Below, piece after piece: positions 20,273 to 38,400 of a DNA stretch of 64,000 nt (positions within the stretch are counted from its first letter, which is position 1; the number at the start of each line of letters is the position of its first letter). A program made the translations under genes and the position numbers. The stretch is from Flavobacteriales bacterium (GTDB lineage Bacteria > Bacteroidota > Bacteroidia > Flavobacteriales_F > PHOS-HE28). Under the pieces are notes generated by a model. It did no database searches. It worked only from the letters and a program-made list of their open reading frames with translations, and was not told where the DNA came from. The stretch spans positions 179,924 to 243,923 of the forward strand of contig JADJCS010000020.1 of NCBI GenBank assembly GCA_016703105.1, given 5' to 3'.

Positions 20273-21131
20273 CAAGGGCGTGAGCGCTGATAAAGTGAAG
20301 GGCAGTGGTCCCAACGGACGCATCACGAAGAGCGATGTCGCCGCTTATGTATCCGGTGGTGTGAGCGCCGATGCGATCGCCATGAACGGCTGGGGTGGAA
20401 AGCGCGACCAGAACCGCGTGAAGATGACCACGCTGCGCAAAAAGGTCGCTGAGCGCTTGGTCGCGGTGAAGAACCAGACCGCCATGCTCACCACCTTCAA
20501 CGAGGTGGACATGAGCGCTGTGATGACCCTGCGCGATAAGTACAAGGACAAGTTCAAGGAGCAGCACGGCGTGGGCCTCGGCTTCATGAGCTTCTTCACG
20601 AAGGCGGTTACCGAAGCGCTCCGCCTCTTCCCTCAAGTGAACGCGCACATCGACGGCGAGGAGATGATGATGCACGACTACGCCGACATCGGCATCGCGG
20701 TCAGCTCACCGAAAGGCCTGATGGTGCCCGTGGTGCGCAACGCCGAGAAGCTTTCGCTCGCGGAGATCGAATCGAAGATCAAGGAGCTCGCGGTGAAGGC
20801 CCGGGACGGCAAGCTCAGCATCGACGAGATGACCGGCGGCACCTTCACCATCACCAATGGTGGTGTGTTCGGCAGCATGCTCAGCACGCCGATCCTCAAT
20901 CCGCCGCAGAGCGCCATACTCGGCATGCACAACATCGTGGAGCGGCCCGTTGCTGTGAACGGCCAGGTCGTCATCCGCCCCATCATGTACGTAGCGCTCA
21001 GCTACGATCACCGCATCATCGACGGCAAGGAGAGCGTGAGCTTCCTGATGGCCGTGAAGCAGATGATCGAGGATCCGGACAAGATGGTCTTCGGCGGGAA
21101 GGATCCGGGGGAGGTGTTGTTGGGATTGTAG
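20262..21131 (+). CDS. sucB: E2 succinyltransferase, E3-binding plus catalytic domain (C-terminal 289 aa) of the frameshifted sucB
   Basis: Catalytic motif '[17 protein letters not shown]' (DHRxxDG active site); peripheral-subunit-binding domain at the N-terminus. Confidence 0.85.
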
Positions 21132-21203
21132 CGGCGATAGGGGACAGCCCATCTGTTGCTATCCGAGCGTTCCGTCGAGTTGCTCAAACGCACGGGCGAT
21201 CGA

Positions 21204-22328: not shown

Positions 22329-22427
22329 GCGCACAAGGTCGGCAGGAATGTGCGGATCTCTGGCAGCGTGCCCATTCGAATGCGGCACTGACGATCGTCA
22401 CTACTTGACCCGCGTTGTGCACCTACT

Positions 22428-23027
22428 TTGACAAGCTGGTCAAAATTCAAAGGAGTGAAAGTGCCCTTGTTCATCAAGCATGTTCTCCCGTTCGCTGCGA
22501 TGTACGCGGTGATGGTGGCGGCGGCGATCCTTTTGGATCGCGGTCTGCACGCCATGGGGTTGGACCATGTGGGGCGTTATCTGGGCCCTGCGGGAACGGC
22601 GTTCATCGCGCTCTCGTTCGTGTATTCATTGCGCAAGCGGAAGATCATCCACTCCGGGCCACCCAGGACCTACCTCATGGTGCATGAGTATCTCGCTTGG
22701 GCCGGCTCGGTGATGATCCTGGTGCATGCCGGCATCCATTTCAACGCCCGCCTTCCCTGGCTGGCCACCTATATGCTACTGATCAGCGTGGCGAGCGGGC
22801 TTGTGGGCAAATACCTCCTGAAGAGCGCCGGTCATTCTTTGGAAGAACGACGACAGGAATTGATCGCGAGCGGATCTACCACCCCTGAAGTGGACAAGGA
22901 GCTCTTCTTCGATTCGGTGACGGTGAACGCCATGAAGCAATGGCGCGTGGTCCACCTGCCCATCGCGTTCACGCTGGGCTTCCTTACCCTGTTGCACGTG
23001 ATCACCGTCCTCATGTTCGGCAAATGA
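22428..23027 (+). CDS. Small polytopic membrane protein with conserved His residues (cytochrome-b-like/DUF4405-like module). Paralogous to the N-terminal part of 25019..25879. Start uncertain: TTG 22428, GTG 22461 after AGGAG, or ATG 22500.
   Basis: 5 predicted TM helices. Shared motifs with the paralog: 'Y..RKR', 'L..HE.L...G....L.H', 'SG.(V/I)G(K/R)(Y/F)', 'W.V.HLP.A'. The stop overlaps the start of the next cytochrome gene. Confidence 0.6.
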   Translation: MTSWSKFKGVKVPLFIKHVLPFAAMYAVMVAAAILLDRGLHAMGLDHVGRYLGPAGTAFIALSFVYSLRKRKIIHSGPPRTYLMVHEYLAWAGSVMILVHAGIHFNARLPWLATYMLLISVASGLVGKYLLKSAGHSLEERRQELIASGSTTPEVDKELFFDSVTVNAMKQWRVVHLPIAFTLGFLTLLHVITVLMFGK

Positions 23028-24040
23028 AGAAGGTCATCATCCTTGCCTTGATCGCGGCGTTCATCGGGCTGGTGTACCTGTTCCCGCACAGCATGCTCGA
23101 GCCCGGGGAACTGGTGGAAGGACACCAGAAGACCCGCGACAATTGTTTCTCCTGCCATCAGCCCTTCGGAGGTCTGCCCAATGCCAAGTGCATCGTCTGT
23201 CACACGGTTGGCGAGATCGGGAAGGATACACTGCTGAACACGGGACCGACGCTTTTCCATGAGGCGCTCAGCGGTATGGAGTGCGTGGAATGCCATAGCG
23301 AGCACATGGGGCGGAACGCGGACCTGACCATGGGCGGCTTCGAGCACGCACTGGTCCCAGCAGCCATAGTGGAGGACTGCAACCGTTGCCATGCGAAACC
23401 AACGGACGAACTGCACACGCCGCTGCCCAACAAATGCGCGGCCTGCCATGATACGCAGGGCTGGAAACCCGCACGCGAATTCGACCATTCCTTGCTGTCG
23501 GCAGCGAGTAAAAGCGATTGTGCGAGTTGCCACCAGCGCCCCACCGATACGCTACATGAACGCATGAAGGGCAATTGTGCCAGCTGCCACTCGACCACCG
23601 CATGGAAGCCCGCAACCTTCGATCATGCCGCTTTGTCCGCTGCGGAGAAGGACCATTGCGCAACCTGCCACCAACCGCCCAAGGATGCTTTCCACCAAGG
23701 CACCAAGGACAATTGCGCCAGTTGCCATGGCACGAACGCATGGTCGCCTTCCACGTTCGATCACTCGGCGTACTTCCGATTGGATGGCGACCACAACGCG
23801 AAGTGCGCCACCTGTCACCAAGCCAACAACTACGGCAGCTACACCTGCTACGGTTGCCACGAGCATACACCGGGCAATATCATCGGCGAGCACCAGGAAG
23901 AGGGGATCACGAACATCACCGACTGCGTGCGATGCCACCGCAGCGGTGATGAGGATGACATCCGCATGGATGGACGGTCCGGAAGCGAAGGCGGGGAAGG
24001 TGCCCGCAAAGGCCGTGATCGTGAAGGGGAGGACGATTGA
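23024..24040 (+). CDS. Multiheme c-type cytochrome, 12 CxxCH motifs in 338 aa, signal-anchored
   Basis: N-terminal TM/signal 'MKKVIILALIAAFIGLVYLF'. Twelve CxxCH (CFSCH, CIVCH, CVECH, CNRCH, CAACH, CASCH x3, CATCH x2, CYGCH, CVRCH) with repeated '(A/T)WKP.(T/R).FDH' spacing. Confidence 0.85.
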   Translation: MKKVIILALIAAFIGLVYLFPHSMLEPGELVEGHQKTRDNCFSCHQPFGGLPNAKCIVCHTVGEIGKDTLLNTGPTLFHEALSGMECVECHSEHMGRNADLTMGGFEHALVPAAIVEDCNRCHAKPTDELHTPLPNKCAACHDTQGWKPAREFDHSLLSAASKSDCASCHQRPTDTLHERMKGNCASCHSTTAWKPATFDHAALSAAEKDHCATCHQPPKDAFHQGTKDNCASCHGTNAWSPSTFDHSAYFRLDGDHNAKCATCHQANNYGSYTCYGCHEHTPGNIIGEHQEEGITNITDCVRCHRSGDEDDIRMDGRSGSEGGEGARKGRDREGEDD

Positions 24041-24058
24041 ACCGTGCCCCTGACCTGA

Positions 24059-24140
24059 CGGGCTTCCCGACGGCCGTGAAGCAGATGATCGAGGACCCCA
24101 GCAAGATGGTCTTCGGCGACATGGTGCCGGGGGATTGCAT
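24059..24140 (+). other. Non-coding remnant homologous to the 3' end of sucB (~80 nt, about 80-85% identity to 21040-21122), within a spurious ORF
   Basis: Translation '[21 protein letters not shown]' versus the sucB C-terminus '[21 protein letters not shown]'. At nucleotide level 'ggccgtgaagcagatgatcgagga' is identical in both. Confidence 0.55.
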
Positions 24141-24316
24141 TTCAGGTCGTAGGTCTTGGGTGGTTCTCTGCTGCTCGGAGGCATCGGGCAGCCCCTGTGT
24201 CCTTCCGGGGATCACATGTTCAGGGACCGATCCGTCCGGTTCCGTCGAAGGGAAATCCCGTTCGGGGGATATTGTCATGGAACTGCCATGGCTTGCTTCC
24301 TACCTTCGAGGCCGGT

Positions 24317-24703
24317 ATGAAGAACTTCGCGGCTTACCTCCTCATTCTCCATGTGCTGTTGAGCACTTGGGCGCCGGGCGGGCTTGCGGAGGTGGCACGC
24401 CTTCCTTCCCTTCAGAGCCATTACGCGGAGCACTTCCTGGAAAGCGGTGGCACCATGGGGTGGGGTGAGTTCCTGAAACTCCACTTCGCGGACCCGGAAC
24501 ATGAGCGCCAGGATGCGGACAGGCACAGTGCCTTGCCCTTCCATGGTCCTTCCATGGCCATGCACATGTTCCTGCCGCCGGCAGCATCGGCCAGTGCGAT
24601 ACCCGCCGTGGTGACCCCCCACGTCCGTCCTGGGACCCTAGCGGCCGAAGTGGGCCAGTGGCCCGGGCGATCGGTGTTCCATCCGCCCAAGTCGATCGGT
24701 TGA
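24317..24703 (+). CDS. Small His-rich exported/membrane-anchored protein (128 aa), paralog A of a pair ending in '...GQW.GRSVFHPPKSIG'
   Basis: N-terminal hydrophobic helix 'MKNFAAYLLILHVLLSTWA'. Motifs 'LQSHYAEHF', 'HFADPEHE', 'LPFHG' and a C-terminus identical to that of 38911..39300. Confidence 0.55.
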   Translation: MKNFAAYLLILHVLLSTWAPGGLAEVARLPSLQSHYAEHFLESGGTMGWGEFLKLHFADPEHERQDADRHSALPFHGPSMAMHMFLPPAASASAIPAVVTPHVRPGTLAAEVGQWPGRSVFHPPKSIG

Positions 24704-25018
24704 GGCGCGTGGGCAGGAACCCCCTGCCGCGCGGACAAGAGCCACTGCTGCTCGGCGGGTTCTTGAACAGTCGTCAACCGTCAATTCCAGTTCATGCGGA
24801 CCCTTGGGGCCATAGTCTTCAACATCATCTTGCTGCAACGCTGGTCCATGGCGATCATTCCGGTGCACTCGGCGAATATCTGCGATCTGGCGCCATGAGA
24901 GGTCGGACCTTCCCCCATATCCCGGCGTATGATGTTCGTTGTGTGGGCCGCATCGGATGCATGTGCATCGTAGCGTCATATTGGGAACGACTGAACCTAC
25001 CGGCTTGACAGGACATTC

Positions 25019-25879
25019 ATGACGCGCACCACCCACACCCTCTTCATCGGAACCATGTCGGCCATCGTCGTCGTGGTGACCGTGTATCTCTCGTACGTCG
25101 GCTGGTCCTACTACCAATTGCCGCTGGAGGAGCGATTCTATCACCCGCAGCACAACTGGTTCAAGCCGAGCGGCGCCTACGGCCATGGCATCGGTATCCT
25201 CGGCACCTTCCTCATCTTGTTCGGTGTGGTGATCTACATCGCGCGCAAACGCTACAACTTCATGACGAAGCAGCTCCGGCTGAAGTACCTGCTGGAGTTC
25301 CACATTTTCCTCTGCACGCTGGGGCCGATCCTCATCCTCTTCCACACGGCCTTCAAATTCGGCGGACTGGTCTCAGTGGCGTTCTGGAGCATGGTGGCCG
25401 TGGTTGCCAGCGGCGTCATCGGGCGCTTCATCTACATCCAGATACCGCGCACCGTGGAGGGTCGCGAACTCAGCCTGAACGAGGTGAAGGGTATGCGAGC
25501 CAAACTGGTCGAGAACCTGAAGCAGAGCGTTGGCCTCGACGAGCAACTGATCCCGTTGATCGTCGGCACCACGGACGGCGAGGGTGCTGCCGCAAAGCGC
25601 AGATCGTTCATTTCCAGGTACCTCGATGAACGCAAGGCCGTCGGTGTGATCCGGTCATCCTTGAAGGCGAAGAACATGGCGCGTGAGGAGCAGGCATCCA
25701 TCATCCGCATGGTGAAAGAAGAGTTCGCCTTGTCCCACCGGATCGGTCGATTGCTCACCATGCAGAAACTGTTCAAGTACTGGCATGTGGCGCACCTGCC
25801 CTTCGCGTTGATCATGCTCATCGTGCTCATCATACACGTGGCCGTTACGTTGTCCTTCGGATACAAGTGGATCTTCTGA
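25019..25879 (+). CDS. Polytopic membrane protein: cytochrome-b-like module (paralog of 22428..23027) with an inserted ~110-aa cytoplasmic segment and a final TM helix
   Basis: Aligns with 22428..23027 ('ARKRYNF', 'LLEFHIFLCTLGPILILFHT', 'ASGVIGRFI', 'WHVAHLPFAL'). Its stop overlaps the next start (TGATG). Confidence 0.7.
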   Translation: MTRTTHTLFIGTMSAIVVVVTVYLSYVGWSYYQLPLEERFYHPQHNWFKPSGAYGHGIGILGTFLILFGVVIYIARKRYNFMTKQLRLKYLLEFHIFLCTLGPILILFHTAFKFGGLVSVAFWSMVAVVASGVIGRFIYIQIPRTVEGRELSLNEVKGMRAKLVENLKQSVGLDEQLIPLIVGTTDGEGAAAKRRSFISRYLDERKAVGVIRSSLKAKNMAREEQASIIRMVKEEFALSHRIGRLLTMQKLFKYWHVAHLPFALIMLIVLIIHVAVTLSFGYKWIF

Positions 25880-27210
25880 TGGAAGTGCTGATCGAACAAA
25901 TAGCGATCTACGGTTCGGTGCTCCTGCTCTGCGGGCTCACCATCTTCTTCTACATGCGCAGCCTCAAAAAGAAGTCCGCGATCGTGGAGAAGAAAGTGGC
26001 CAAGGCCAAGGAGGAAGGCATGTTCGAGCCGGTATCGCTGCATCCGTACATCGACCTGAACACCTGCATCGGTAGTGCAGCGTGCGTGGCCGACTGTCCG
26101 GAAAAGGACATCCTCGGCATCGTGGACGGCAAGGCCACGGTGATCCTCGCCAGCAACTGCGTGGGCCATGGCGCTTGCTTCCACGCCTGCCCGGTGCAGG
26201 CCATCTCCCTGCGCATCGGCACCGAGACGCGCGGCATCGATCTGCCGCACGTGGATCAGACTTTCGAGACCAACATCAAAGGGATCTACATCGCGGGGGA
26301 GCTCGGCGGCATGGGTTTGATCAGGAATGGTGTGGAACAGGGTAAGCAGGCCATGGCGAATATCGCGAGCGCCAAGAAGCCCAGGGCCGAAGGCGTGCTC
26401 GATGTGGTGATCATCGGCGCCGGACCGGCCGGTATCTCGGCCACGTTGGAAGCGAAAAAGCAAGGCTTGACCAGCGCCACGTTGGAGCAGGATTCGCTCG
26501 GCGGCACCGTGTACACGTTCCCACGCTCCAAGCTCGTGATGACCTCACCGATGGACCTTCCATTGCATGGCAAGGTGAAGTTGTACGACACCACGAAGGA
26601 TGAACTGCTCCAGCTCTGGCGGAAGGTGATCAGTGAGCACAAGATCGAGATCACCGAGAACACGAAAGTGGATGCCATCGTGCCACAGAAGGACGGGACG
26701 TTCAAGCTGTCCACCAACGTGGGCAAGGACTATATCTGCAACAATGTTCTGTTGGCCATCGGCCGCCGCGGAACACCAAGAAAATTGGGCATACCCGGCG
26801 AAGAGTCGACCAAGGTGGCCTACCGGTTATTGGAACCCGAGAACATCGCTGGCAAGAAAGTCGTGGTTGTGGGCGGTGGTGATGCCGGTGTGGAATCCGC
26901 GATGCTGCTGATGAACGACAATGAAGTGCTCTTGGTCAATCGCAACGAGAATTTCGCGGGTATCAAACCCAAGAACCGTGAAGCAGTGACCGCAGCCATC
27001 GATGCCGGGAAAATGAAGGCGGTCTACAAGGCCAACTTGGTATCCATAGCACCGGAATCCGTGTTGTGCAAAGTGGGTGAAGACACGCAGCAACTGCCGA
27101 ACGACCTCGTGTACATTTTCGCTGGTGGTGAACTCCCTACCGGCTTCTTGCAGAAGGCCGGCATTGAGATCACAAAACGGTTCGGACATATCGTGAAGAA
27201 GCACACGTGA
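25879..27210 (+). CDS. Membrane-anchored FeS-flavoprotein: N-terminal TM helix, 2x ferredoxin-like cluster motifs, and a thioredoxin-reductase-like FAD/NAD(P)-binding pyridine nucleotide-disulfide oxidoreductase domain
   Basis: TM 'IAIYGSVLLLCGLTIFFYM'. 'CIGSAACVADCP' and 'CVGHGACFHACP' (non-canonical Cx2(S/H)x2Cx3CP). Two Rossmann motifs 'VVIIGAGPAGISA' and 'VVVVGGGDAGVESA'. Confidence 0.85.
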   Translation: MEVLIEQIAIYGSVLLLCGLTIFFYMRSLKKKSAIVEKKVAKAKEEGMFEPVSLHPYIDLNTCIGSAACVADCPEKDILGIVDGKATVILASNCVGHGACFHACPVQAISLRIGTETRGIDLPHVDQTFETNIKGIYIAGELGGMGLIRNGVEQGKQAMANIASAKKPRAEGVLDVVIIGAGPAGISATLEAKKQGLTSATLEQDSLGGTVYTFPRSKLVMTSPMDLPLHGKVKLYDTTKDELLQLWRKVISEHKIEITENTKVDAIVPQKDGTFKLSTNVGKDYICNNVLLAIGRRGTPRKLGIPGEESTKVAYRLLEPENIAGKKVVVVGGGDAGVESAMLLMNDNEVLLVNRNENFAGIKPKNREAVTAAIDAGKMKAVYKANLVSIAPESVLCKVGEDTQQLPNDLVYIFAGGELPTGFLQKAGIEITKRFGHIVKKHT

Positions 27211-28829
27211 GATCCCTCGCGACATACCTGTTCGTTGTGCTATCGCTGGTGGCGATGACAAGTCGTGCGCAATTGTCGCCGGGGGATCTGACCACCGCGC
27301 ATGCCAACTTGGAGGGCATGAGCAACTGCACGCAGTGCCACGATCTGGGCAACAAGGTGACGAACGCCAAGTGCCTGGAGTGCCATAAGGAGATCAAGTC
27401 GCTCATCACGCAGAAAAAGGGCTACCACGCAAGCAAGGACGTGAAGGCGAAGGATTGCTTCACCTGCCACAGCGAGCACCATGGACGGAAGTTCGAGATG
27501 GTGCGCTTCGATGAGAAGACGTTCGATCACGGGTTGACGGGCTATGCCCTCACCGGCGCGCACAAGCCCGTTGACTGCCGCGAATGCCACCTACCGGACA
27601 ACATCGCGGACAAGGAGTTGAAGAAGCGGGACAAGACCTTCCTCGGCCTGGACCAGAAGTGCCTTTCCTGTCACGACGACTTCCATCAGAGCACGATGGA
27701 CAAGGATTGCCTGAAGTGCCATACCATGACGGCATGGAAGCCGGCCAGCGTGTTCGATCACGACAAGACCGATTTCCCGCTCAAGGGAAAGCACATCCCT
27801 GTGGATTGCAAGGAATGTCACGCCATCACCACCAAGAACGGCAAGCAGTTCCAAGCGTTCGGCGATGTGCCCCACACGGATTGCAAGGCGTGCCACGATG
27901 ATCCGCACAACGCGCACTTCACCAACGCTTGCGCCCAGTGCCACACGGAGAACGCCTTCTCGACCTTCGCAGGGAAGGACCGCTTCGACCACAACACCAC
28001 GCCGTTCAAGTTGAACGGCAAGCACAAGACCACCGATTGCTTTGAATGCCACAAGCGCACCAGCGATCCGCTAACGGTCTTCCAGGACCGGGCCGGGGTG
28101 GCGATGAACCAATGTGCCACGTGCCACAAGGACCAGCACGATGGGAAGTTCGGCACGGACTGCGCGAAGTGCCACCAGGAGAAAGGCTGGGTCGCCGTGA
28201 AGTCGATGGACTTCTTCGATCACAGTGTCACCGACTTCCCATTGCAGGGAAAGCACGTTGACGTGGATTGCAAGAAGTGTCACAAAGGGCGGTACACCGA
28301 TCCGATCGTTTTCGTGGCGTGCAATAGCTGCCATGCTGACTTCCACAAAGGCGAGTTCGCTGAGAACGGTGTGTCGCCGGATTGCGTGGAGTGCCACTTC
28401 CTCACCGATGGGTTCGATGTGAGCATGTATTCCTTGGAGCAGCACGCCACAACGAAATTCCCGCTGGACGGGGCGCATGTGGCCACACCCTGCTCCGAAT
28501 GCCATTTGAACGAGAAATGGAAGAAAGGTGCCGAGAATTCGACCGGAGAGAAGTGGAAATTCCGCGAACTGGCAATGGCCTGCGCTGATTGCCACGACAA
28601 CGTGCACGGTGAAGAGTTCGCACAGTCAGGTATTACGGATTGCAAGCGTTGCCACGTTACCGGCGACTGGTTCCCCAGCTTGTTCGATCATACCAAGACG
28701 GCTTTTCCGCTGGAAGGTGAACACAAGACCGTGGATTGCCGGGAGTGCCACAAGAACCCTGCGGAGGGCAATGAGAAATTGGGGTCGTTCAAGATCGCGA
28801 AGTACCAATGCATAGACTGCCACAAATAG
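27207..28829 (+). CDS. Multiheme c-type cytochrome, 20 CxxCH motifs in 540 aa (GTG start overlapping the upstream stop)
   Basis: Signal peptide 'MRSLATYLFVVLSLVAMTSRAQ'. 20 CxxCH, about one per 27 aa, with a recurring 'FDH...FPL.G.H..V.C..CH' unit. Confidence 0.9.
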   Translation: MRSLATYLFVVLSLVAMTSRAQLSPGDLTTAHANLEGMSNCTQCHDLGNKVTNAKCLECHKEIKSLITQKKGYHASKDVKAKDCFTCHSEHHGRKFEMVRFDEKTFDHGLTGYALTGAHKPVDCRECHLPDNIADKELKKRDKTFLGLDQKCLSCHDDFHQSTMDKDCLKCHTMTAWKPASVFDHDKTDFPLKGKHIPVDCKECHAITTKNGKQFQAFGDVPHTDCKACHDDPHNAHFTNACAQCHTENAFSTFAGKDRFDHNTTPFKLNGKHKTTDCFECHKRTSDPLTVFQDRAGVAMNQCATCHKDQHDGKFGTDCAKCHQEKGWVAVKSMDFFDHSVTDFPLQGKHVDVDCKKCHKGRYTDPIVFVACNSCHADFHKGEFAENGVSPDCVECHFLTDGFDVSMYSLEQHATTKFPLDGAHVATPCSECHLNEKWKKGAENSTGEKWKFRELAMACADCHDNVHGEEFAQSGITDCKRCHVTGDWFPSLFDHTKTAFPLEGEHKTVDCRECHKNPAEGNEKLGSFKIAKYQCIDCHK

Positions 28830-31531
28830 GGGCCCTCCTGCTGGTAGCTGTGCGGTTGAACGCGCAGTCGCCGCACGGCGAAGCCATGAAAATGGATTGC
28901 GCCCAGTGCCATGTACCGGCGGATTGGACGAGCATTTCGGACAGCATTCCGTTCGACCATGATCTGACGCGCTATCCGCTCGTAGGCACTCACGCACAGG
29001 TGGAGTGCAAGGCGTGCCACACAACGCTCGTCTTCGATGAGGCTCCCGACCAGTGCAGTGCCTGCCACACCGATATGCACGGCATGACCGTTGGCGATGA
29101 TTGTGCACGCTGCCACACACCCCGGAATTGGTTGGTTGATGCGATCCCTGAACTGCATGAGGAGAACGGGTTCCCCTTGATCGGTGCGCATGGCAATTTG
29201 AGCTGTGTGGACTGCCACACCTCGGAGACCGCGTTACGCTTTGACCGAATTGGCAATGACTGCATAAGTTGCCATGCGGATGATCTCCGGGCCACCCGGC
29301 ATCCGGACCACATCATGGCCGGATTTTCGGACGATTGCATCCAGTGCCATGATCCGTTGGGCTCTGGTTGGAACACGGAGATCGTCGATCACGACTTCTT
29401 CCCTCTCATTTTAGGGCACGCCATTTCCGACTGCGACCAGTGCCACACGGGAGGTTCTTTCTCCACCTCCTCGTCGGAGTGCGTCAGTTGCCACCAGAAC
29501 GACTTCTCAGGCACCGCCAACCCGGACCATACGGTTGCGGGATTCTCAACGGACTGCGCCACATGCCATACTATAAGCCCAGGGTGGACACCCGTGACCT
29601 ATGATCACAGTGGCTATCCATTGATCGGTGCGCACGCGTTGGTGCATGATTGTGACCAATGCCACAACGGCAATTACAACAACACGCCGAACACCTGCGA
29701 GGGCTGCCACCTGGCGGACTACAACGGCAGTGTCAACCCCAACCACACCGCTGCTGGCTTTTCCACGGATTGCGCGCAATGCCATGACGAGACGGCGTGG
29801 TCGCCGTCCGGTTATGATCACAACGGCTACCCACTGGTCGGGGCGCATACCACCGCAAGTTGCGATCAATGCCACAACGGCAATTACAACAACACGCCGA
29901 ACACCTGCGAGGGCTGCCACCTGGCGGACTACAATGGCAGTGCCAACCCCAACCACGCCGCTGCTGGCTTTTCCATGGATTGCGCGCAATGCCATGACGA
30001 GACGGCGTGGTCGCCGTCCGGCTATGATCACAACGGCTACCCGTTGGTCGGGGCGCATACCACCGCAAGTTGCGATCAATGCCACAACGGCAATTACAAC
30101 AACACGCCGAACACCTGCGAGGGCTGCCACCTGGCGGACTACAATGGCACCACCGCCCCGAACCACACTTCCGCACAGTTCACCACGGACTGCACGCAAT
30201 GCCACGACGAAGCGGCGTGGTCGCCGTCCTCATACGATCATGCGACCACGGGTTTCCCACTTACCGGCGGCCATGTCGGCGTTGACTGCGCGCAATGCCA
30301 CTCCAACGGTTACCAGGGTACACCGATCAACTGTGATGCCTGCCACATGCCGGACTACAATGGCACCACCAACCCGAACCATGCGGCGGCCCAGTTCCCT
30401 ACGGATTGCACGATCTGTCACGATGAGACCGCCTGGGGGAACTCGACCTTTGATCATGGCACGACCAGCTTCCCGTTGACCGGGGGCCACTCCGGCGTTG
30501 CCTGTACGCAATGCCATTCCAATGGGTACCAGGGTACACCGACCAACTGTGATGCCTGCCACATGCCGGACTACAATGGCACCACCGACCCGAACCATGC
30601 GGCGGCCCAGTTCCCCTCGGATTGCACGCAATGCCACGATGAGACAGCTTGGATCCCATCGAGCTATGACCACAACGGTTACCCACTGATGGGGTCGCAC
30701 GCCACGGTCAGCTGCGACCAATGTCACAATGGCAACTACAACAATACACCGAGCACATGCGACGGATGTCACATGCCGGACTATAACGGGACGACCAACC
30801 CGGACCATGCCGCAGCTCAGTTCCCTGTGGATTGTGCACTATGCCACGATGAGACGGCCTGGAACAATTCGACCTTCGATCATAGTACGACCGATTTTCC
30901 CCTGACAGGTGGCCATGCGGGCGTCAACTGCATCGCCTGCCATTCCAATGGCTATCAGAGTATACCGACCAACTGCGATGCCTGCCATATGCCGGATTAC
31001 AATGGCACCACCAACCCGGACCATGCCGCTGCCCAATTCCCCACCGACTGTGCGCAATGCCACAATGAAACTTCCTGGACCCCTTCTACGTTCGATCATA
31101 GCGCGACGGGCTTTGCGCTGACCGGAGGGCATGCGGGCGCGAGTTGTCTCCAGTGCCATTCCAACGGCTATCAAGGCACGCCGACGGATTGTGATGCGTG
31201 CCACATGGCGGATTTCAACGCCACCACCAACCCGGACCACCAGGCAGCCCAGTTCCCCACGGATTGCGCCCAGTGCCACAGTATATCGGCATGGTCGCCT
31301 TCCACGTTCGATCACGACGGGATGTACTTCCCGATCTATAGTGGAACGCACAACGGGGAGTGGAACACGTGCGTTGAATGCCACACCGACCCGAACGACT
31401 ATAGTGTGTTCAGTTGCATCGATTGCCATGAGCACGACGACCAAGCCCAGGTCGACAATGATCATAGCGGGGAGAACGGGTATTCGTACAACAGTGCCGC
31501 CTGCTTCAATTGCCATCCCAATGGGAATTGA
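28808..31531 (+). CDS. Giant multiheme c-type cytochrome, 37 CxxCH motifs in 907 aa; polymer of ~70-aa triheme (cytochrome-c7-like) modules
   Basis: Signal peptide 'MHRLPQIGALLLVAVRLNA'. 37 CxxCH counted. Repeated unit 'GYPLVGAH...CDQCHNGNYNNTP.TCEGCH.ADYNG..NPNH.AAGFS.DCAQCHDETAWSPS.YDHN'. Confidence 0.9.
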   Translation: MHRLPQIGALLLVAVRLNAQSPHGEAMKMDCAQCHVPADWTSISDSIPFDHDLTRYPLVGTHAQVECKACHTTLVFDEAPDQCSACHTDMHGMTVGDDCARCHTPRNWLVDAIPELHEENGFPLIGAHGNLSCVDCHTSETALRFDRIGNDCISCHADDLRATRHPDHIMAGFSDDCIQCHDPLGSGWNTEIVDHDFFPLILGHAISDCDQCHTGGSFSTSSSECVSCHQNDFSGTANPDHTVAGFSTDCATCHTISPGWTPVTYDHSGYPLIGAHALVHDCDQCHNGNYNNTPNTCEGCHLADYNGSVNPNHTAAGFSTDCAQCHDETAWSPSGYDHNGYPLVGAHTTASCDQCHNGNYNNTPNTCEGCHLADYNGSANPNHAAAGFSMDCAQCHDETAWSPSGYDHNGYPLVGAHTTASCDQCHNGNYNNTPNTCEGCHLADYNGTTAPNHTSAQFTTDCTQCHDEAAWSPSSYDHATTGFPLTGGHVGVDCAQCHSNGYQGTPINCDACHMPDYNGTTNPNHAAAQFPTDCTICHDETAWGNSTFDHGTTSFPLTGGHSGVACTQCHSNGYQGTPTNCDACHMPDYNGTTDPNHAAAQFPSDCTQCHDETAWIPSSYDHNGYPLMGSHATVSCDQCHNGNYNNTPSTCDGCHMPDYNGTTNPDHAAAQFPVDCALCHDETAWNNSTFDHSTTDFPLTGGHAGVNCIACHSNGYQSIPTNCDACHMPDYNGTTNPDHAAAQFPTDCAQCHNETSWTPSTFDHSATGFALTGGHAGASCLQCHSNGYQGTPTDCDACHMADFNATTNPDHQAAQFPTDCAQCHSISAWSPSTFDHDGMYFPIYSGTHNGEWNTCVECHTDPNDYSVFSCIDCHEHDDQAQVDNDHSGENGYSYNSAACFNCHPNGN
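29657..30150 (+). repeat. In-frame tandem DNA repeat, period 210 nt, ~2.4 copies at ~97-98% identity, inside the 37-heme cytochrome gene
   Basis: 'caatgccacaacggcaattacaacaacacgccgaacacctgcgagggctgccacctggcggactacaa' recurs at ~29657, ~29867 and ~30077. Confidence 0.85.
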
Positions 31532-31559: not shown

Positions 31560-33029
31560 ATGGGACCATGGTTGCGAGGGATCTGTGTAGCGTTCCTTTC
31601 GGCCGTCGGGATGGTCCCGATCAATGTCCTGGCGCAATCGCCGCACGGCGAGGCGATGAAGATCGATTGTGCCGCATGCCACGTACCTGACGGTTGGAGC
31701 GCCATGCGGGACTCGCTGACGTTCGATCACGGGCAGACCCATTTTCCATTGATAGGCGTCCATGACCAGGTGGACTGCAGGTCCTGCCACGCTTCATTGG
31801 TCTTCAGTGAGGCCCCGCCGGACGATTGCATTTCGTGCCACACGGATGTACACAGTATGTCCGTGGGTGACGATTGTGCCCGGTGCCATACGCCGGTGAG
31901 CTGGCTGGTCGACGACATACCTGAGCTGCACGAGCAGAACGGGTTCGCTTTGGTCGGGGTGCATAGCAATTTGAGCTGTGTGGATTGTCACATTTCGGAC
32001 AACGGCAACACATTCATCAGGCTTGGCAATGATTGCATCAATTGCCACCAAGCGGATTACCTCGCCACCAAGAGCCCTGATCATATGTTGGCGGGATTCT
32101 CCGCGAACTGCGTGGAGTGCCATGATCCACTTGGCTTCGGCTGGGCGACCGATCTCGTTGACCACGATTTCTTTCCGCTCACTCTGGGGCACGACATCGG
32201 TGATTGCGCGCGCTGCCATACCACCGGCGATCTCTCGGCCGTATCGCCCGAATGCGTGAGCTGCCATCAGCAGGACTACAACAGCACAACGAACCCGAAC
32301 CACGCGGCTTCCGGATTCTCCACCGATTGCGCCTCCTGCCATACGACCGATCCGGGGTGGACACCAGCGACGTTCGATCACGATGCACAGTTCTTCCCCA
32401 TCTACAGCGGATCGCACAACGGCCAATGGAGCGCGTGCACGGACTGCCACACGAACCCCAATGACTTCTCGGTGTTCACATGCACCGGATGCCACGTGAA
32501 CCCCCAGACCGACGGCGACCACAATGGCATGCCCGGTTATGTCTATGAGAGCAATGCCTGCCTGGCCTGCCACCCGAACGGGGATGCCTTCGGCTTTGAC
32601 CACAACACCACCGATTTCCCCCTCCAAGGGGGTCACGTCGGCGTTAACTGCACCGAGTGCCACGCGAATGGCTATGCGGGCACGCCCACCAACTGCGACG
32701 CGTGCCACATGGACGATTACAACGGCACCACCAACCCGAACCATAGCGGCGCCCAGTTCCCCACGGATTGCGCGCAATGCCACAATGAAACCGCGTGGAC
32801 CCCGGCCAACTTCGATCACGACAACCAGTACTTCCCGATCTATAGCGGGAACCACAACGGCGAATGGAACACCTGTTCTAGTTGCCACACCAACAGCAAC
32901 GACTACAGTGTCTTCAGCTGCATTATCTGCCACGACGACGAGGCACAATTAGCCGACGATCACAGCGGTGAGAACGGATACGCGTTCAACAGCAATGCAT
33001 GCTTCTCATGCCATCCCAGCGGGAACTAG
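31560..33029 (+). CDS. Multiheme c-type cytochrome, 19 CxxCH motifs in 489 aa; paralog of the 37-heme protein with shared N- and C-terminal modules
   Basis: Start at the in-frame ATG just after the upstream stop. Signal peptide 'MGPWLRGICVAFLSAVGMVPINVLAQSPHGEAMKIDCAACH' parallels '..AQSPHGEAMKMDCAQCH' of the upstream gene. The C-terminal '..YSVFSCIICHDDEAQLADDHSGENGYAFNSNACFSCHPSGN' is also shared. Confidence 0.85.
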   Translation: MGPWLRGICVAFLSAVGMVPINVLAQSPHGEAMKIDCAACHVPDGWSAMRDSLTFDHGQTHFPLIGVHDQVDCRSCHASLVFSEAPPDDCISCHTDVHSMSVGDDCARCHTPVSWLVDDIPELHEQNGFALVGVHSNLSCVDCHISDNGNTFIRLGNDCINCHQADYLATKSPDHMLAGFSANCVECHDPLGFGWATDLVDHDFFPLTLGHDIGDCARCHTTGDLSAVSPECVSCHQQDYNSTTNPNHAASGFSTDCASCHTTDPGWTPATFDHDAQFFPIYSGSHNGQWSACTDCHTNPNDFSVFTCTGCHVNPQTDGDHNGMPGYVYESNACLACHPNGDAFGFDHNTTDFPLQGGHVGVNCTECHANGYAGTPTNCDACHMDDYNGTTNPNHSGAQFPTDCAQCHNETAWTPANFDHDNQYFPIYSGNHNGEWNTCSSCHTNSNDYSVFSCIICHDDEAQLADDHSGENGYAFNSNACFSCHPSGN

Positions 33030-33031
33030 CG

Positions 33032-34630
33032 ATGGCTATGCGAACCCTCACGCTTTGGTCCCTTCTCCTGGTCGTATCCGGTTGCTTCGGGCAGGACGCG
33101 CTGCAGGGTGAGGTCACCTTCATCACGGCGAACAACGTGTATGTCAACTTCGGAACTACGGCCGCCATCGCGATCGGGGATACCCTTCACGTGGTGAAGG
33201 GTACAGAGGTCAGTCCCTGCTTGGTGGTGACCACCAAGTCCACCACCTCATGCCTCTGTACCGTCGTTGCGGGGTGCAAGGTCCAGAAGAACGACAAGGT
33301 CGTGCTTAGGACCCCGCATCCCGTTGTGCCGCCTTCGGGTCGGTCGACCGGGAAGGCGGAGAAAGGTCCCGCCGCCGAGAAGGTCCGTGACAATGGCGAA
33401 CGTTATCGAGGCCGGCTTTCGGCGACGAGCTATAGTACGATCCCATCGGCGAGGGAGAACGATCACCGGGTGATGTACCGCCTTTCGGCCAATGCGGACC
33501 GTATCGGCGGCTCCAAGTTCTCCGCCGAGACCTACTTGAACTACCGGCAGTTGTTCCCGGCGGGGGAGAGCAAGTATCCGCAGCGCACGGAGTTTTTCAA
33601 CGTGTATAGCTTGGCGGTGAACTATGCCCCGGACTCCACTTTCTCGATCACGCTCGGGAGGAGGGTCAATAACAGCGCATCCTCCTTGGGGGCCATTGAT
33701 GGATTGCAGGTGGAGAAGCACTTCGGCGGTTTCTTCACGGGCGTGATCGCCGGGTCCCGGCCTGATATCATCGATTACGGCTTGAACGTCGGCCTGCTTG
33801 AATACGGGGGCTACCTGGGATATGCCCGGAGCGCGGAGAAGTTGGATACGCGAACGACATTGGGGCTTTTGCAGCAGACCAATGCGGGACCGGTCGATAG
33901 GAGGTACGCCTACTTTCAGCATAGCTCCACGTTCTGGAACGACCTCAACATCTTCGGTTCCTTTGAGCTCGATCTCTACGGTTTGGTGGATGGTGCACCT
34001 ACCACCAAGGCCCGACTGACCAACTTCTATCTCTCTTCCCGCTATCGGTTCGGAAAGCGGGTCGATCTGTTCGCTTCCTATGATGCCCGGAGGCGTATCG
34101 TTTACTACGAAACCTATCGGAGCGATATTGAGATGCTGCTGGACGATGATGACGCGATGCAGGGTGCCCGCTTGCGGTTGAACGTGCGTCCGATCAAGGA
34201 TATCAGTTTGAGCGCGAGCTACAGCAAGCGGTTCGAAAGTGATGGAGGGAACAGGTCGGACAATATCAACGGCTACATCACCTTTTCCAAGGTCCCTGCC
34301 ATTGGTGGGCGCTGGTCTGTGCAGGTGAACCGGAACACATCGAGCTATGTGAGGAGCGATGTACTATCCGTGCGGCATTCGCGGATGCTCGTCAAGAAGC
34401 GGATGAACGCGAGCGTATATTTCCGTATGGCGAACTACAGGTACTCCACCCTCCTTGATGTGGAGGGGGTTCCCATGGAACGGCACCAGAAGTTCTATGG
34501 CGTCGATCTCTCCTACAACATCCTGCCCAAGTTGGTGTTCAGTGTGTTGGGCGAACTCTCGACCATGGGCGATGAACAGAACTACAGAGTGAACGTGAGC
34601 ATCACAAAACGTTTCGACAGTAAGAGATAG
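33032..34630 (+). CDS. Predicted outer-membrane beta-barrel protein (candidate porin partner of the cytochromes)
   Basis: Signal peptide 'MAMRTLTLWSLLLVVSGCFG'. ~530 aa with many alternating-hydrophobicity stretches ('YSLAVNYAPDSTFSITLG', 'VDLSYNILPKLVFSVLGEL', 'YRVNVSITKRF'). Starts 3 nt after the cytochrome stop. Confidence 0.55.
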   Translation: MAMRTLTLWSLLLVVSGCFGQDALQGEVTFITANNVYVNFGTTAAIAIGDTLHVVKGTEVSPCLVVTTKSTTSCLCTVVAGCKVQKNDKVVLRTPHPVVPPSGRSTGKAEKGPAAEKVRDNGERYRGRLSATSYSTIPSARENDHRVMYRLSANADRIGGSKFSAETYLNYRQLFPAGESKYPQRTEFFNVYSLAVNYAPDSTFSITLGRRVNNSASSLGAIDGLQVEKHFGGFFTGVIAGSRPDIIDYGLNVGLLEYGGYLGYARSAEKLDTRTTLGLLQQTNAGPVDRRYAYFQHSSTFWNDLNIFGSFELDLYGLVDGAPTTKARLTNFYLSSRYRFGKRVDLFASYDARRRIVYYETYRSDIEMLLDDDDAMQGARLRLNVRPIKDISLSASYSKRFESDGGNRSDNINGYITFSKVPAIGGRWSVQVNRNTSSYVRSDVLSVRHSRMLVKKRMNASVYFRMANYRYSTLLDVEGVPMERHQKFYGVDLSYNILPKLVFSVLGELSTMGDEQNYRVNVSITKRFDSKR

Positions 34631-34631
34631 G

Positions 34632-35414
34632 ATGATGAACAAGAAGATCGGATACATGTACGCATCGATCATCTGTGGGGTCATGGTGACCGCATGCGAT
34701 GACGGTCCCAAGACCATTGCCTCGGAAAAGTCCAATGAGGGCACTACCGGGGTCTTCTCCGGAAATGCGGAGGATGCGTCCCAAGGGGCCGCTATGACCG
34801 GCGCAGGGGTGGGGGCGGACGTGCACTCGATCACCGCGCTCGAAGTGCTTCCAACGACGAAGTACGTATACGTGCGTGCGAAGGAGGGCGATGAGGAGTT
34901 CTGGATCGCGTCCACCAAACAGGAGGTCGTGGTGGGCAGAACCTACTTCTACCGTGGCGGACTTCTGAAGACCGATTTTCAGAGCAAGGAGTACAACAGA
35001 ACGTTCGAGAAACTGTATTTGATCTCGCAGCTCGTTCCTTCCGACCATGGCAGCCAAGGTTCGGGTATGCCACCATCCACGCCGTTCACTCCTACCCAGC
35101 AGGAGCCGGCATCGCCGATCATCAGCGAAGGATCCGTGAAGATCTCCGAACTATTGGCGGACCCGAAGAAGTTCGCCGGAAGGTCCGTTCAGGTCAGTGG
35201 CACCTGCACCAAGGTGAACCCGAACATCATGGGTCGTAATTGGGTCCATTTGAACGATGGCACCAACAAGGACCAAGACCTTGTCGTTACCACGGACGTG
35301 CTGATCCCGGAGGGCCATGCCGTAACCATGGTGGGCACCGTGGCGCTGGACAAGGACTTTGGCGCGGGGTATCAGTACGGTATCCTCTTGGAAGGCGGTA
35401 CGCTGGTGAAGTAG
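34632..35414 (+). CDS. Lipoprotein (lipobox 'VTAC'), possibly with an OB-fold-like C-terminal domain; last gene of the cytochrome operon
   Basis: 'MMNKKIGYMYASIICGVMVTACDDG' is a signal peptide with a lipobox Cys. Starts 2 nt after the beta-barrel stop. Confidence 0.55.
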   Translation: MMNKKIGYMYASIICGVMVTACDDGPKTIASEKSNEGTTGVFSGNAEDASQGAAMTGAGVGADVHSITALEVLPTTKYVYVRAKEGDEEFWIASTKQEVVVGRTYFYRGGLLKTDFQSKEYNRTFEKLYLISQLVPSDHGSQGSGMPPSTPFTPTQQEPASPIISEGSVKISELLADPKKFAGRSVQVSGTCTKVNPNIMGRNWVHLNDGTNKDQDLVVTTDVLIPEGHAVTMVGTVALDKDFGAGYQYGILLEGGTLVK

Positions 35415-35434: not shown

Positions 35435-38400
35435 CTAGGAGAACAAGCGGAACGCCCGCTTCCGCACAAAGGCGATCAGACCAATGATCACCAGCACCAT
35501 GACCCCGATGTACACCCATTGCGGTACCGGCACTGGATCGCCGGCGGCATAGGAGTGGAGACCTGAGAGGTAGTAGTTCACCCCGTAGTAGGTCATGATC
35601 ACGGTGGCTAACCCGAAGAGCGAGGCCACATTGTAGGCGTACAGGCCCTGCAGCTTCGGGATGAGCCGCATGTGCAGGATGAACGCATAGACCAGGATGG
35701 TGACCAAGGCCCAGGTCTCCTTCGCATCCCAACCCCAGTAGCGTCCCCAGGATTCGTTGGCCCACACCCCACCGAGGTAGGTGCCGATGCTGATCATGAA
35801 CAAGCCCCCGATCAAGGTCATCTCACTGAGGTAGGACATTTCCTTCACGACCTTGTGGATGCGTTTCTCGTTGTGTTTCGAGAGGAAGATCATCAGGATG
35901 AGGTTGATCAAGCCGATCACCGCGCCCAGCATGAGGAAGCCGTAGCTCCCCGCCTCCAATGAGACGTGGATGGTCAACCAGTAGGAACGCAACACCGGGA
36001 CCAACGGGGTGATCTCCGGGTCCAGGTAGCTCAACATGGCCACGAGCAGTACCGTTGCCGCAAGGATCATGGTCGCTGCGGATCCACCAAAGGATCTCCT
36101 GGTGAACAGGATACCCGCCAGCACCGTGGTCCAGGCGATGTAGATCATCGACTCATAGCCATTGCTCCACGGTGCACGTTCGGAGACGTACCAACGCAGG
36201 CCAAGACCGATCGTGTGCAGGAAGAACCCGAACAGCAGGAGCACGAGCAGCACTTTCTGGACCTTCCGCAGGTCAACGGCGGGTTTGAAGACCGAAAAGA
36301 ACATCAGGAAAAGGAAGGCCACACCCAGGGAGGTGTAGAACAAGGCCAACCGGTTGAAGACGTTCAGTTCGTTCAGCAAGATCTCCGCTCCGATCCGCGC
36401 AGTGCTGGGGACCACGGCCGCACCTTGCTCCTTTTGGTAAGCACTGAGTTCGTTCAGCAGCTTATCAGGAAGTGCATAGTTGCCGGTGGACATGGCCTCC
36501 CGCAACGCATGGACGTATGTGGAGAAGAACCGGTCCGCAACGGGGTCGTTACCATGTTCGTGACCGTCCGATCGCGCACCGACCCAGGTATTGTTGGGGT
36601 CACCCGGCACCGGTATGATCTTGAGCATTCCGCCCCCCAGCACCATGTTCATGATGTTCAAGCGTTCATCCACTTTCATCAGGTCCTTCTCGTAGACCCC
36701 GCGATCGATGGGTTGCATCGCGTTGACCCTGCTGACCTCATCGCGAAGCACGTAGTCGCCGTTCGAATCGAAGAAGTCCTCGTACGCGGCCAGTGGGCCC
36801 GGGACCCCCAACTGCTCGTGTATCTTCTGGTGTTCACCCAGCTTGATCATCGGGACCGCGATCCAGTCCTTGCTACTTGCCAACATCCCCAGGACCACCT
36901 GGTCGGCGGACAGGTCGTTGATGCGCTCCTTGCGGTACACCTTGCGCATCACCTCGCGCGTCAGTGTGTGCATCGGTTTCATTCGCCCTCGATGGTCCTG
37001 GACCACGATCCTGCTGAAACGTTCGGCATGCGCGGCGTCCACGATGTTCAGGTTGTTACGCTGATCGATCACCTTTTGCGCCTGGGCCAGCGTGGGTGCC
37101 GAGAGCAGGGCCAGCACCAACACCGGCACCGTGGTCGTCCTCCTCATCATTTCGATGTTCTCCGAAAGCTTGTGGAACCGGCTCTTCTTGCTCAAGAGGG
37201 ACATGATCATGCCGATGGTCAGCAGGATGTAGCCGATGTAAGAGATCCAGGTCCCCCAGAAGTCGTGGTTCACGCTCAGATATGTCCCAAGCTCATCCTG
37301 GTCGAAGGAGGACTGGAAGAAACGATAGCCATCGTGGTCCAGAACGTTGTTCATGAAGATGCGGTGGTCCTCCTTCACGTCCGCTCGCTCATCTATCAAC
37401 TGTACCTCACTGGCATAGGAGGTGGCGCTGTTGGTGCCAGGGTAGCGCTCCATGATGAAGTCATAGAGCTTCAGGGAGAAGGGGAGGGGAATGTCCTTGG
37501 CCCCATAGGATATGGCCACGTCCATGTCATCCGCATGCGCGACCGCGGGTCTGCCGGCCATGCCCTTCTGCCCATAGACCATCAGTTCCTGCGCGGTGCC
37601 ATTCACCTTCACCACCATCCGAAGTGCGGTCAGGCTTTCGTTCTTCACCTTGGGACCTTCGGATCCGAGTTTGACGACGGCTTGTTCCTTGAAGTCTCCG
37701 AAGACAAATCCATTGGTCCCGTCGTTGTACATGGAGCGAAGCCGCAACGGATGATAGGCTTCCCGTGGATACAATGTGTCCGTGGTCCGCGTGGCCATCA
37801 CGGTCTGTACCAATGCCCTATCCGACTTGATAAGAAGGGAATCGTTCCGGTAGGCGATGTTCACGGCCTCCGGGAGGAGCGCTTCTGTGAAGTTGAAGAG
37901 CACGTTGTGGTACCGCCTGGTCTCTCCGGCGCTGACATAGTATTCCTCCCGACCGCCCATGCCCGCGAACACCACCTTGATGGTCGGCTTGCCGTTCGGA
38001 GCCTCCTCCAATAGCTGCTTGGGATTCGGTATGAACTCTTGGACCTCCGCCTCGATCAGATCATCGCCGATGAGATATGAACCCCTCCAATCGTTGTTCC
38101 CCAAAGTCGAAAAAAGCACGGGTTCATCGAAATGATAGACCTGCTCGCCCTGCCTCACTTGAAAAAGCAAATAGGTCTCCGCCGAAAGGAAACTGTTCGA
38201 CGATCCGTTCTCCCGGATATGCATGATGCCCTCGTAGCCGAAGTACCGTGTAACGCCCGCGCCGATCAGGATCACGATCATGGCCAGGTGGAACGTGAGC
38301 AAGGCCCACTTCCGCTGCCGCACCATCTTGAACCGCACCACGTTCACCATGATGGTGATGGCGAAAAGGACGAGCAGGAGCGAGAACCACGAGGACTTAT

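Follow-up and report, generated by a model that had tools for sequence, protein, structure and literature searches.

Background

To our knowledge, all well-studied Gram-negative routes to periplasmic multiheme cytochromes start at the quinone pool, as in the cases of CymA, ImcH, CbcL and CbcBA. Here we describe two related membrane proteins, labeled module A and module B, and a flavoprotein, labeled F, which are encoded among multiheme cytochrome genes in a metagenome-assembled genome of a Flavobacteriales bacterium (Bacteroidota). The stretch of DNA that was analyzed, referred to below as the window, comprises 64,000 nucleotides with a G+C content of about 0.60 (GenBank assembly GCA_016703105.1, contig JADJCS010000020.1, positions 179,924 to 243,923 of the forward strand), and all coordinates are counted from its first nucleotide. 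A preliminary description of the window had characterized A and B as paralogous membrane proteins with conserved histidines, each heading a cytochrome sub-operon, and as putative entry points from the quinone pool.

Two transmembrane (TM) helices that together carry four histidines are the signature of transmembrane two-heme cytochromes, which include cytochrome b, the NOX, STEAP and MsrQ proteins, and DUF4405. The Tmc and Hmc complexes of sulfate reducers are arranged in layers: a multiheme cytochrome c in the periplasm, a cytochrome b in the membrane and an iron-sulfur (FeS) protein in the cytoplasm. Experiments have demonstrated that DUF4405 binds heme b via four central histidines (Huang et al. 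2024, PMC11334425); it was proposed to carry electrons over the membrane to extracytosolic acceptors, and cytochromes of the DUF4405 kind are on record in connection with flavinylation and with ferrosomes (PMC11334425). MsrQ takes electrons from a cytosolic NADH oxidoreductase and hands them on to a periplasmic enzyme (PMC12525009), and CbcBA and CbcL of the Geobacter inner membrane are taken to be quinol-cytochrome c oxidoreductases (PMC13591261). For the Bacteroidetes, putative novel porin-cytochrome clusters have been mentioned in general terms (PMC6344600). We found no description of the A/B family, of its pairing with multiheme cytochromes or of the unit formed by F and B in the literature covered, which is incomplete, so that another description may exist.

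On balance, we consider it somewhat more likely than not that A and B act as diheme wires to multiheme cytochromes, and that B and F together represent a split unit fed by NAD(P)H, similar in parts to NOX and to Tmc/Hmc.

Paralogy and conserved histidines of modules A and B

Module A (22455..23027, plus strand) is a five-helix membrane protein of 190 aa and a putative diheme b-type cytochrome, and module B (25019..25879, plus strand) is its 286-aa paralogue. A direct BLASTP comparison of the two yields 27% identity over 124 aa (E 1e-5), with the C-terminal helix separately reaching E 2e-4, and an hhalign comparison of the A-family and B-family alignments gives a probability of 96.4% (E 1.1e-9). 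Judging from these similarities, A and B are true paralogues, related beyond chance, as the preliminary description had proposed. Both open reading frames are real and lie on the plus strand, with one correction to the earlier coordinates. Module A most likely starts at GTG 22455 and not at TTG 22428, because the resulting length of 190 aa, in place of 199 aa, matches almost all homologues, which open with MK.P....

The joint alignment contains 20 columns that are invariant over both families, including Y..RK, SG..G, W...H.P and four histidines. The motifs Y..RKR, SG.(V/I)G(K/R)(Y/F) and W.V.HLP.A, noted previously in the two proteins, are common to A and B and invariant over both families. 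A further reported motif, L..HE.L...G....L.H, is shared in part, the literal HE being H-E in A whereas B has E-F-H-I. The four invariant histidines are His77 and His91 in TM3 and His167 and His181 in TM5 of A, corresponding to His95, His109, His259 and His273 of B.

AlphaFold2 models of the two proteins contain five long helices each, with a predicted local distance difference test (pLDDT) score of 75 for A and 69 for B, and the His pairs fall inside helices 3 and 5 of the models (residues 70-95 and 154-188 in A, 88-114 and 222-285 in B). Both the TM2-TM3 and the TM4-TM5 loop are predicted to be cytoplasmic from hydropathy and, by the positive-inside rule, from the basic RKR loop. In this predicted topology TM3 and TM5 would be parallel, because both of these loops are cytoplasmic, and one His pair would lie near each face of the membrane. 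One difference between the paralogues is the TM4-TM5 loop, which is a helical cytoplasmic segment of about 110 aa in B in place of a loop of about 40 aa in A, so that the second and third histidines are 150 residues apart in B compared to 76 in A. The preliminary description had regarded the charged segment of about 110 aa as an insertion; it is indeed cytoplasmic and specific to B, but it replaces the shorter loop of A and is not a pure insertion. A second difference is an extra 18-aa insertion in the first periplasmic loop of B.

This His-rich periplasmic loop (residues 31-56 of B) has the B-family pattern EERFYHPxHxWFKPSGxxGH, which includes three more invariant histidines, H42, H45 and H56. 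Module A has additional invariant histidines of its own at the periplasmic ends of helices, H32 and H95. These extra periplasmic histidines of A and B could serve cytochrome docking, or could provide an added ligand or bind metal.

The A/B family and its remote relatives

The family is large. With an E-value limit of 0.001, at least 6,987 clusters at 90% identity are matched with B as the query and at least 1,920 with A, and a joint A+B profile matches at least 3,640 clusters at 50% identity. The homologues that bear a name are all called 'hypothetical' save two entries from the Joint Genome Institute, one of these being 'cytochrome b561'. Conservation was surveyed in 108 diverse representatives, many of which are less than 25% identical to one another. 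All four histidines are present in 107 of the 108, the remaining sequence having Tyr at the first His, and the H-x13-H spacing is exact on both helices in 108/108. Thirty-three representatives have the short (A-type) and 61 the long (B-type) TM4-TM5 loop. The conserved histidines of predicted TM helices, to which the preliminary description had drawn attention, follow the classic bis-His two-heme pattern. Neither a lack of profile similarity between A and B nor histidines placed outside the membrane or left unconserved, which that description had named as grounds for abandoning it, were found.

Weak matches to known domain families recur among the relatives. DUF4405 is matched by 35 of the 108 representatives at E ≤ 0.01 (best E 1.5e-6) and by 22 of 41 close relatives at E ≤ 0.1. 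The prokaryotic cytochrome b561/Ni_hydr_CYTB family (PF01292) is matched by 17 of the 108 at E ≤ 0.01; against its threshold of 30.1 bits A and B show no match, and the relatives P0250 and P0253 score 23.6 and 20 bits. Ferric_reduct (PF01794) is matched by 14 of the 108 (best E 2.8e-5), A and B not being among those with matches. Precomputed labels in relatives from the Marinimicrobia clade include PF01292 in several proteins and PF01794 in one. Beyond DUF4405, cytochrome b561 and the ferric-reductase TM domain, no family recurs among the 108 representatives. Because of these recurrent sub-threshold matches, the A/B family most likely belongs to the two-heme cytochrome b superfamily, as a branch that has so far gone without annotation. 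The DUF4405 and cytochrome b561 families had been named earlier as leads, and at the sub-threshold level the lead is borne out.

Some traits of the matched families are found in A and B as well. As in DUF4405, the four most conserved histidines are central and lie in TM helices, and as in ferric reductases, the His pairs are located on TM3 and TM5 about 13 residues apart, given the predicted helices. DUF4405 is the commonest weak Pfam match of the A/B family and resembles it in being small and polytopic. It differs in having six helices compared to the five predicted in A and B, which remain below its threshold, and its partners are ApbE-flavinylated proteins, whereas those found here are multiheme c-type cytochromes and an FeS-flavoprotein.

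The iron-sulfur flavoprotein F

The gene for F (25879..27210, plus strand) directly follows B. The protein consists of an N-terminal TM helix, a Lys-rich stretch, a ferredoxin-like domain and a Pyr_redox_3 domain for FAD and NAD(P)H. The Pfam scores are 131.3 bits for Pyr_redox_3 (cut-off 30), 99 bits for Pyr_redox_2 and 41.7 bits for Fer4_10 (cut-off 25.5), and the nearest solved relatives are YpdA/Bdr (7a7b, E 5e-23) and the TrxR-type ferredoxin-NADP+ reductases. The FAD motif GAGPAG and the NAD(P)H motif VVGGGD are both conserved, and by these motifs and Pfam matches F is a TrxR-type flavoprotein with two dinucleotide-binding sites. Flavoproteins of this group serve electron transfer between NAD(P)H and FeS ferredoxins. 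In F, the ferredoxin forms one chain with the flavoprotein and is anchored in the membrane beside B. The Lys-rich stretch after the TM helix would place the catalytic part in the cytoplasm by the positive-inside rule.

The FeS motifs of F are unusual. The classic 2x[4Fe-4S] pattern consists of two CxxCxxCxxxCP motifs with eight Cys, whereas F has six Cys in these motifs, although the fold matches. Motif 1 (residues 63-74) reads C-x2-S-x2-C-x3-CP, with Ser at the position of Ser66 in 80 of 82 orthologues, and motif 2 (residues 94-105) reads C-x-G-H-x2-C-x3-CP, with His at the position of His97 in 82/82. The substitutions reported previously, CIGSAAC..CP and CVGHGAC..CP, are therefore both present and conserved. 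In distant orthologues, which are only 35-43% identical, the Ser of motif 1 is replaced by Cys and the His of motif 2 is kept. The motif 1 Ser is thus specific to the Bacteroidota clade, and the motif 2 His is universal, including in Marinimicrobia-type clades. This pattern suggests a cluster that is His-ligated (or 3Fe) as the hallmark of the F family; candidate cluster types in F are a 3Fe cluster and a 4Fe cluster to which His or Ser would contribute a ligand.

The six Cys of the FeS motifs are the only ones conserved in the cytoplasmic part of F; Cys18 in the TM anchor is largely conserved. Disulfide-reductase chemistry is unlikely because the conserved cytoplasmic Cys are confined to the FeS motifs. 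We also considered F as a YpdA-like bacillithiol-disulfide reductase and rejected this assignment, as F scores 156.5 bits compared with the TIGR04018 cut-off of 339.9 and no Cys is conserved beyond the FeS motifs.

Gene linkage across relatives

The genomic context of B was surveyed in a scan of one genome per species, which yielded 256 matching stretches. The best 80 were taken; all are from Bacteroidota, and they include Flavobacteriales, Cyclobacteriaceae, Chryseolinea, Saprospiraceae and Chitinophagales. Isolates with the B locus are Yeosuana aromativorans, Y. marina, Maribacter arenosus and Aureitalea sp., and one metagenome-assembled genome labeled Alteromonas probably represents a binning error. 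The following counts refer to loci with enough flanking sequence. F comes after B in 78 of 79 loci, mostly at a distance of 0-3 nt, a cytochrome similar to the 20-heme protein of the window (cyt20-like) follows in 67/67, and a 532-aa protein is encoded within 10 kb in 45 of 48. The pairing of F and B persists in three gene orders among relatives that are 31-42% identical: F and B are divergent in L087, F precedes B and a cytochrome in L170 and L173, and in L171 B and F are followed by two large cytochromes and then by proteins of 276 and 550 aa. The distant F/B clade comprises Marinimicrobia, Calditrichaeota, Krumholzibacteriota and 'FCB group' bacteria.

Module A has a simpler context. A CxxCH-rich gene abuts A in all 65 metagenomic loci with enough downstream sequence. 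Its product usually has 10 hemes (10-12), about 300 aa and an N-terminal hydrophobic anchor, and A with this cytochrome is the only conserved unit in 20 long A loci. No F was present in 80 A-type loci. F is found at every long-loop locus with enough flank save one, P0360, and at no short-loop locus; since F is at the B loci and at none of the 80 A-type loci, it tracks the long-loop class and not the short-loop class. The earlier statement that each module heads a cytochrome sub-operon holds, for A with the cytochrome directly and for B with F and then the cytochromes.

Proposed electron path and its alternatives

We propose that A and B each hold two b-type hemes by means of the four invariant histidines. 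The first His of TM3 and the first His of TM5 would bind the heme near the cytoplasmic face, and the second His of each helix the heme near the periplasmic face, so that electrons would pass over the inner membrane to the multiheme c-type cytochrome encoded next. B, the membrane-anchored F and the cytochromes would form a three-part unit. Electrons would move from NAD(P)H to FAD and the two FeS clusters of F, one of which would have the conserved His for the second Cys, and from there via the inner and the outer heme b of B to the 20-heme cytochrome; the 37- and 19-heme cytochromes would come next, and last a putative outer-membrane component. F probably docks on the enlarged TM4-TM5 loop that B is predicted to expose to the cytoplasm. 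Such a route would amount to electron export that need not use the quinone pool. Module A, which has neither F nor the long loop, would be an autonomous bc-type pair with its anchored 10-12-heme partner, and its donor would be either quinol at a site on the cytoplasmic side or a soluble reductase. By analogy with CbcBA and CbcL, a quinol donor is a reasonable guess for A.

The argument for a cytoplasmic protein donor to B rests on the near-obligate, order-independent linkage to F and on the match between loop length and the presence of F. For B, this linkage points away from the quinone-pool entry and the NrfH/CymA-type role that had been suggested in the preliminary description. Outward flow is favored because the potential is lowest at NAD(P)H, where the path begins, and because outward movement of electrons goes with the membrane potential. 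As no energy would be conserved on the way, the B path would be an electron sink.

The arrangement proposed for B resembles NOX, STEAP and MsrQ in the His pairs on TM3 and TM5 for an inner and an outer heme, and in a cytoplasmic NAD(P)H flavoprotein as donor with an acceptor outside the membrane. A and B also share with MsrQ a basic motif at the cytoplasmic face, R77/R78 in MsrQ and RKR in A and B. The His spacing is 13/12 in NOX, compared to 13/13 in A and B. Unlike the donors of those systems, F carries two FeS clusters and is of the TrxR type rather than the FNR type, and the acceptor is a chain of multiheme cytochromes here and O2, Fe(III) or MsrP there. No significant sequence or profile similarity connects NOX, STEAP or MsrQ with A and B, the weak matches in 14 of the 108 representatives notwithstanding. 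The three-layer design of Tmc and Hmc is common to the B unit. However, the cytoplasmic subunit of Tmc and Hmc is HdrD-like with CCG domains and has no flavin or NAD(P)H domain, their cytochrome b is of the NarI type, and their electrons flow inward, towards DsrC.

Several results weigh against the proposal that A and B are diheme wires and that B is fed by NAD(P)H through F. No Pfam or NCBIfam model reaches its threshold for A or B; B scores 14.8 bits (E 0.041) against the DUF4405 model PF14358, which has a cut-off of 26.7, and A has no match to it. An hhalign comparison of the family with the single sequence of E. coli MsrQ is not significant (E 0.17), a Foldseek search of the PDB with the A and B models returned nothing significant, and none of the PDB sequences was matched by the family profile. 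The AlphaFold2 models themselves are of moderate confidence only. In P0360, a B-type relative, a cytochrome gene follows directly and there is no F within about 1 kb. Matches that would identify the 532-aa protein as a barrel are weak, with OMP_b-brl found in 3 of 27 orthologues at E ≥ 0.014. Export of electrons from NAD(P)H would dissipate energy, and the physiological sense of such a process is a matter of conjecture. Finally, A or B may possess a quinone site.

This last point leads to the alternative that survives best, which we nevertheless regard as rather unlikely: both A and B would be menaquinol dehydrogenases that feed periplasmic multiheme cytochromes, in a role like that of CymA and NrfH and with an architecture like that of Geobacter CbcBA and CbcL, while F would have an accessory function or provide another way in for electrons. 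The combination of a membrane diheme cytochrome b with an anchored multiheme cytochrome c is what is seen in CbcBA and CbcL (PMC13591261), A is without a cytoplasmic protein partner over 80 loci, and the relatives' weak matches to Ni_hydr_CYTB concern the family of the quinone-reactive FdnI/HydC-type subunits. The absence of an adjacent F from P0360 also fits. However, this view would leave unexplained why B and F are linked in 78 of 79 loci and why distant clades keep the two together in three gene orders, as well as the fact that the long loop goes with F (with P0360 as the one exception) and the short loop never does. A two-heme span with a periplasmic acceptor also requires a donor on the cytoplasmic side, and no quinone-site motif was identified in A or B, although none was searched for specifically and no sequence motif is diagnostic of such a site in this fold.

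The comparison with CbcBA and CbcL is closest for A. These systems likewise combine a membrane b-type and an anchored multiheme c-type cytochrome that feed periplasmic cytochromes for extracellular electron transfer (EET) (PMC13591261), and they are the closest architectural analogue of the pair formed by A and its 12-heme partner. CbcB and CbcL are HydC/FdnI-like, however, whereas the A/B family has only weak PF01292 matches, and the B unit adds a cytoplasmic FeS-flavoprotein that has no counterpart of such form in Cbc. With NrfH and CymA of the NapC/NirT family the likeness is limited to the proposed role, an inner-membrane feed to periplasmic multiheme cytochromes. Those proteins carry four c-type hemes and have a single TM helix, whereas A and B have no CxxCH and five predicted TM helices, and homology with NrfH/CymA was rejected on these grounds.

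Inward flow, from extracellular donors such as Fe(II), reduced humics, a cathode or a partner cell through the cytochromes and b hemes to F and NAD(P)+, appears very unlikely. The wiring is reversible in principle, and in Tmc and Hmc periplasmic electrons do pass via cytochrome b to a cytoplasmic FeS protein. However, typical multiheme cytochromes could reduce NAD(P)+ (about -320 mV) only in an uphill reaction, the electrons would move against the membrane potential, and the hosts include aerobic heterotrophic flavobacteria (Maribacter, Yeosuana, Aureitalea). Least credible of all is a role of A and B in heme handling or in maturation, for the load of 88 CxxCH sites, in the manner of the TM histidines of CcsBA, which serve heme transport in System II. 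A ResB-CcsA fusion does adjoin the operon, both in the window and in a relative from the Cyclobacteriaceae. However, two helices with H-x13-H each, together with the matches to DUF4405, cytochrome b561 and ferric reductases, fit stable bis-His hemes, A and B are without a WWD-type motif, tight linkage to an NAD(P)H flavoprotein serves nothing in heme delivery, and pairs of A and a cytochrome occur without ccs genes nearby.

Cytochromes and the putative outer-membrane step

The four cytochrome genes of the window are all on the plus strand and encode a 12-heme protein with an N-terminal hydrophobic anchor (23024..24040), a 20-heme protein with a signal peptide (27207..28829), a 37-heme protein composed of repeated c7-like units (28808..31531) and a 19-heme protein (31560..33029; 489 aa counted from the ATG preceding the signal peptide). 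The CxxCH counts are exactly the 12, 20, 37 and 19 given in the preliminary description, 88 sites in sum. The 12-heme gene starts at ATG 23024; an alternative start at ATG 22940 was rejected as an artefact of the open reading frame caller. In the 37-heme cytochrome, nearly identical units of about 75-80 aa (…DCAQCHDETAWSPSGYDHNGYPLVGAHTTASCDQCHNGNYNNTPNTCEGCHLADYNGS…) are repeated in tandem, and its orthologues vary widely in length, with about 400 to more than 1,000 aa aligned, which implies expansion and contraction of the repeats. The 12-heme and 20-heme cytochromes begin similarly (23024-23120 and 27207-27330), with a hydrophobic segment, PG(D/E)L…H and then two CxxCH, and a motif of the PG(D/E)L…H type is present in 79 of 83 cyt20-like N-termini. 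The shared motif may indicate that the b- and c-type partners were duplicated together, or it may be a plain feature of c7-type cytochromes.

Downstream of the cytochromes lie genes for a conserved 532-aa secreted protein (33032..34630, plus strand), a candidate outer-membrane beta-barrel, and a conserved 260-aa protein with a lipoprotein-like signal, …VTAC-DD (34632..35414, plus strand). Neither has a notable Pfam, PDB or profile match. In porin-cytochrome (Pcc/Mtr-type) conduits, an outer-membrane beta-barrel is encoded beside periplasmic and extracellular multiheme cytochromes. The locus encodes three multiheme cytochromes and the 532-aa protein, which, given its weak barrel matches, may be the outer-membrane beta-barrel of such a conduit.

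Organization of the locus

The genes are arranged in the order sucA, sucB, a ferritin-like/VIT1 gene between sucB and A on the minus strand, A, the 12-heme gene, a gap of about 1 kb without a confident gene, B, F, the 20-, 37- and 19-heme genes, and the genes for the 532-aa and 260-aa proteins, with all but the VIT1 gene on the plus strand. The translational coupling claimed earlier is seen in the gene overlaps, with ATGA at the junction of A and the 12-heme gene, TGATG with an overlap of 1 nt at the junction of B and F (which starts at ATG 25879, matching its orthologues), GTGA at the junction of F and the 20-heme gene, and 22 nt between the 20- and 37-heme genes. A promoter and terminator scan of 21100-25100 gave counts at the level of shuffled controls, with models that do not cover Bacteroidota promoters.

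Two direct repeats of 73 nt on the plus strand, about 85% identical, bracket the block of the VIT1-ferritin gene (minus strand), A and the 12-heme cytochrome; the first copy (21040..21112) is at the 3' end of sucB and the second (24062..24134) just past the 12-heme gene. Both copies are present in L005, L006, L016 and L017, close relatives with the gene arrangement of the window. In other close relatives (L091, L092, L095 and L096) the A pair is downstream of the B operon, and this different position points to rearrangement mediated by recombination. In L007, the 8.6 kb that precede B are without an A pair, and the VIT1 gene is located downstream of the operon. The spacer between A and B retains 70-73% nucleotide identity over 24240-24813 in L016 and L017 and holds a possible open reading frame of 128 aa (24317-24703, plus strand), which has a signal-peptide-like N-terminus and no family match.

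The operon is adjoined by a gene on the minus strand (35435..38596) for a ResB-CcsA fusion of 1,052 aa, of System II cytochrome c biogenesis. The same fusion is encoded just upstream of the cluster in the Cyclobacteriaceae relative L001, and because of this adjacency in both genomes the cluster seems to carry its own heme-attachment machinery. Downstream of the cluster (39513-43150, minus strand) lie genes for two proteins that carry C-terminal sorting domains of type IX secretion, and an open reading frame of 2,459 aa is found further downstream (54984-62363, plus strand).

Conclusions

What appears to be new is the three-component arrangement of the B type, and an unannotated diheme family as the inner-membrane module of FCB multiheme systems. 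We tentatively suggest, as a possibility that falls short of probable, that F, B and the cytochromes represent a previously undescribed, quinone-independent entry to EET, serving the FCB group as a non-conserving electron sink for fermentative or micro-oxic heterotrophs. It is equally tentative that this interpretation extends over the Bacteroidota, Marinimicrobia, Calditrichota and Krumholzibacteriota.

If electrons do pass from NAD(P)H directly to EET by way of F and B, the scoring of electron transfer in metagenomes of Bacteroidota, Marinimicrobia and related groups would change. The unit would then be a bacterial multi-subunit analogue of NADPH oxidase, and a compact module for engineered electron export. 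The proposal is testable, as cultured marine flavobacteria carry the A/B family. Even on a more conservative reading, a new family of diheme cytochromes b provides an annotation marker of multiheme-cytochrome operons, and a large family without annotation appears to supply the inner-membrane step for multiheme systems over the FCB superphylum.

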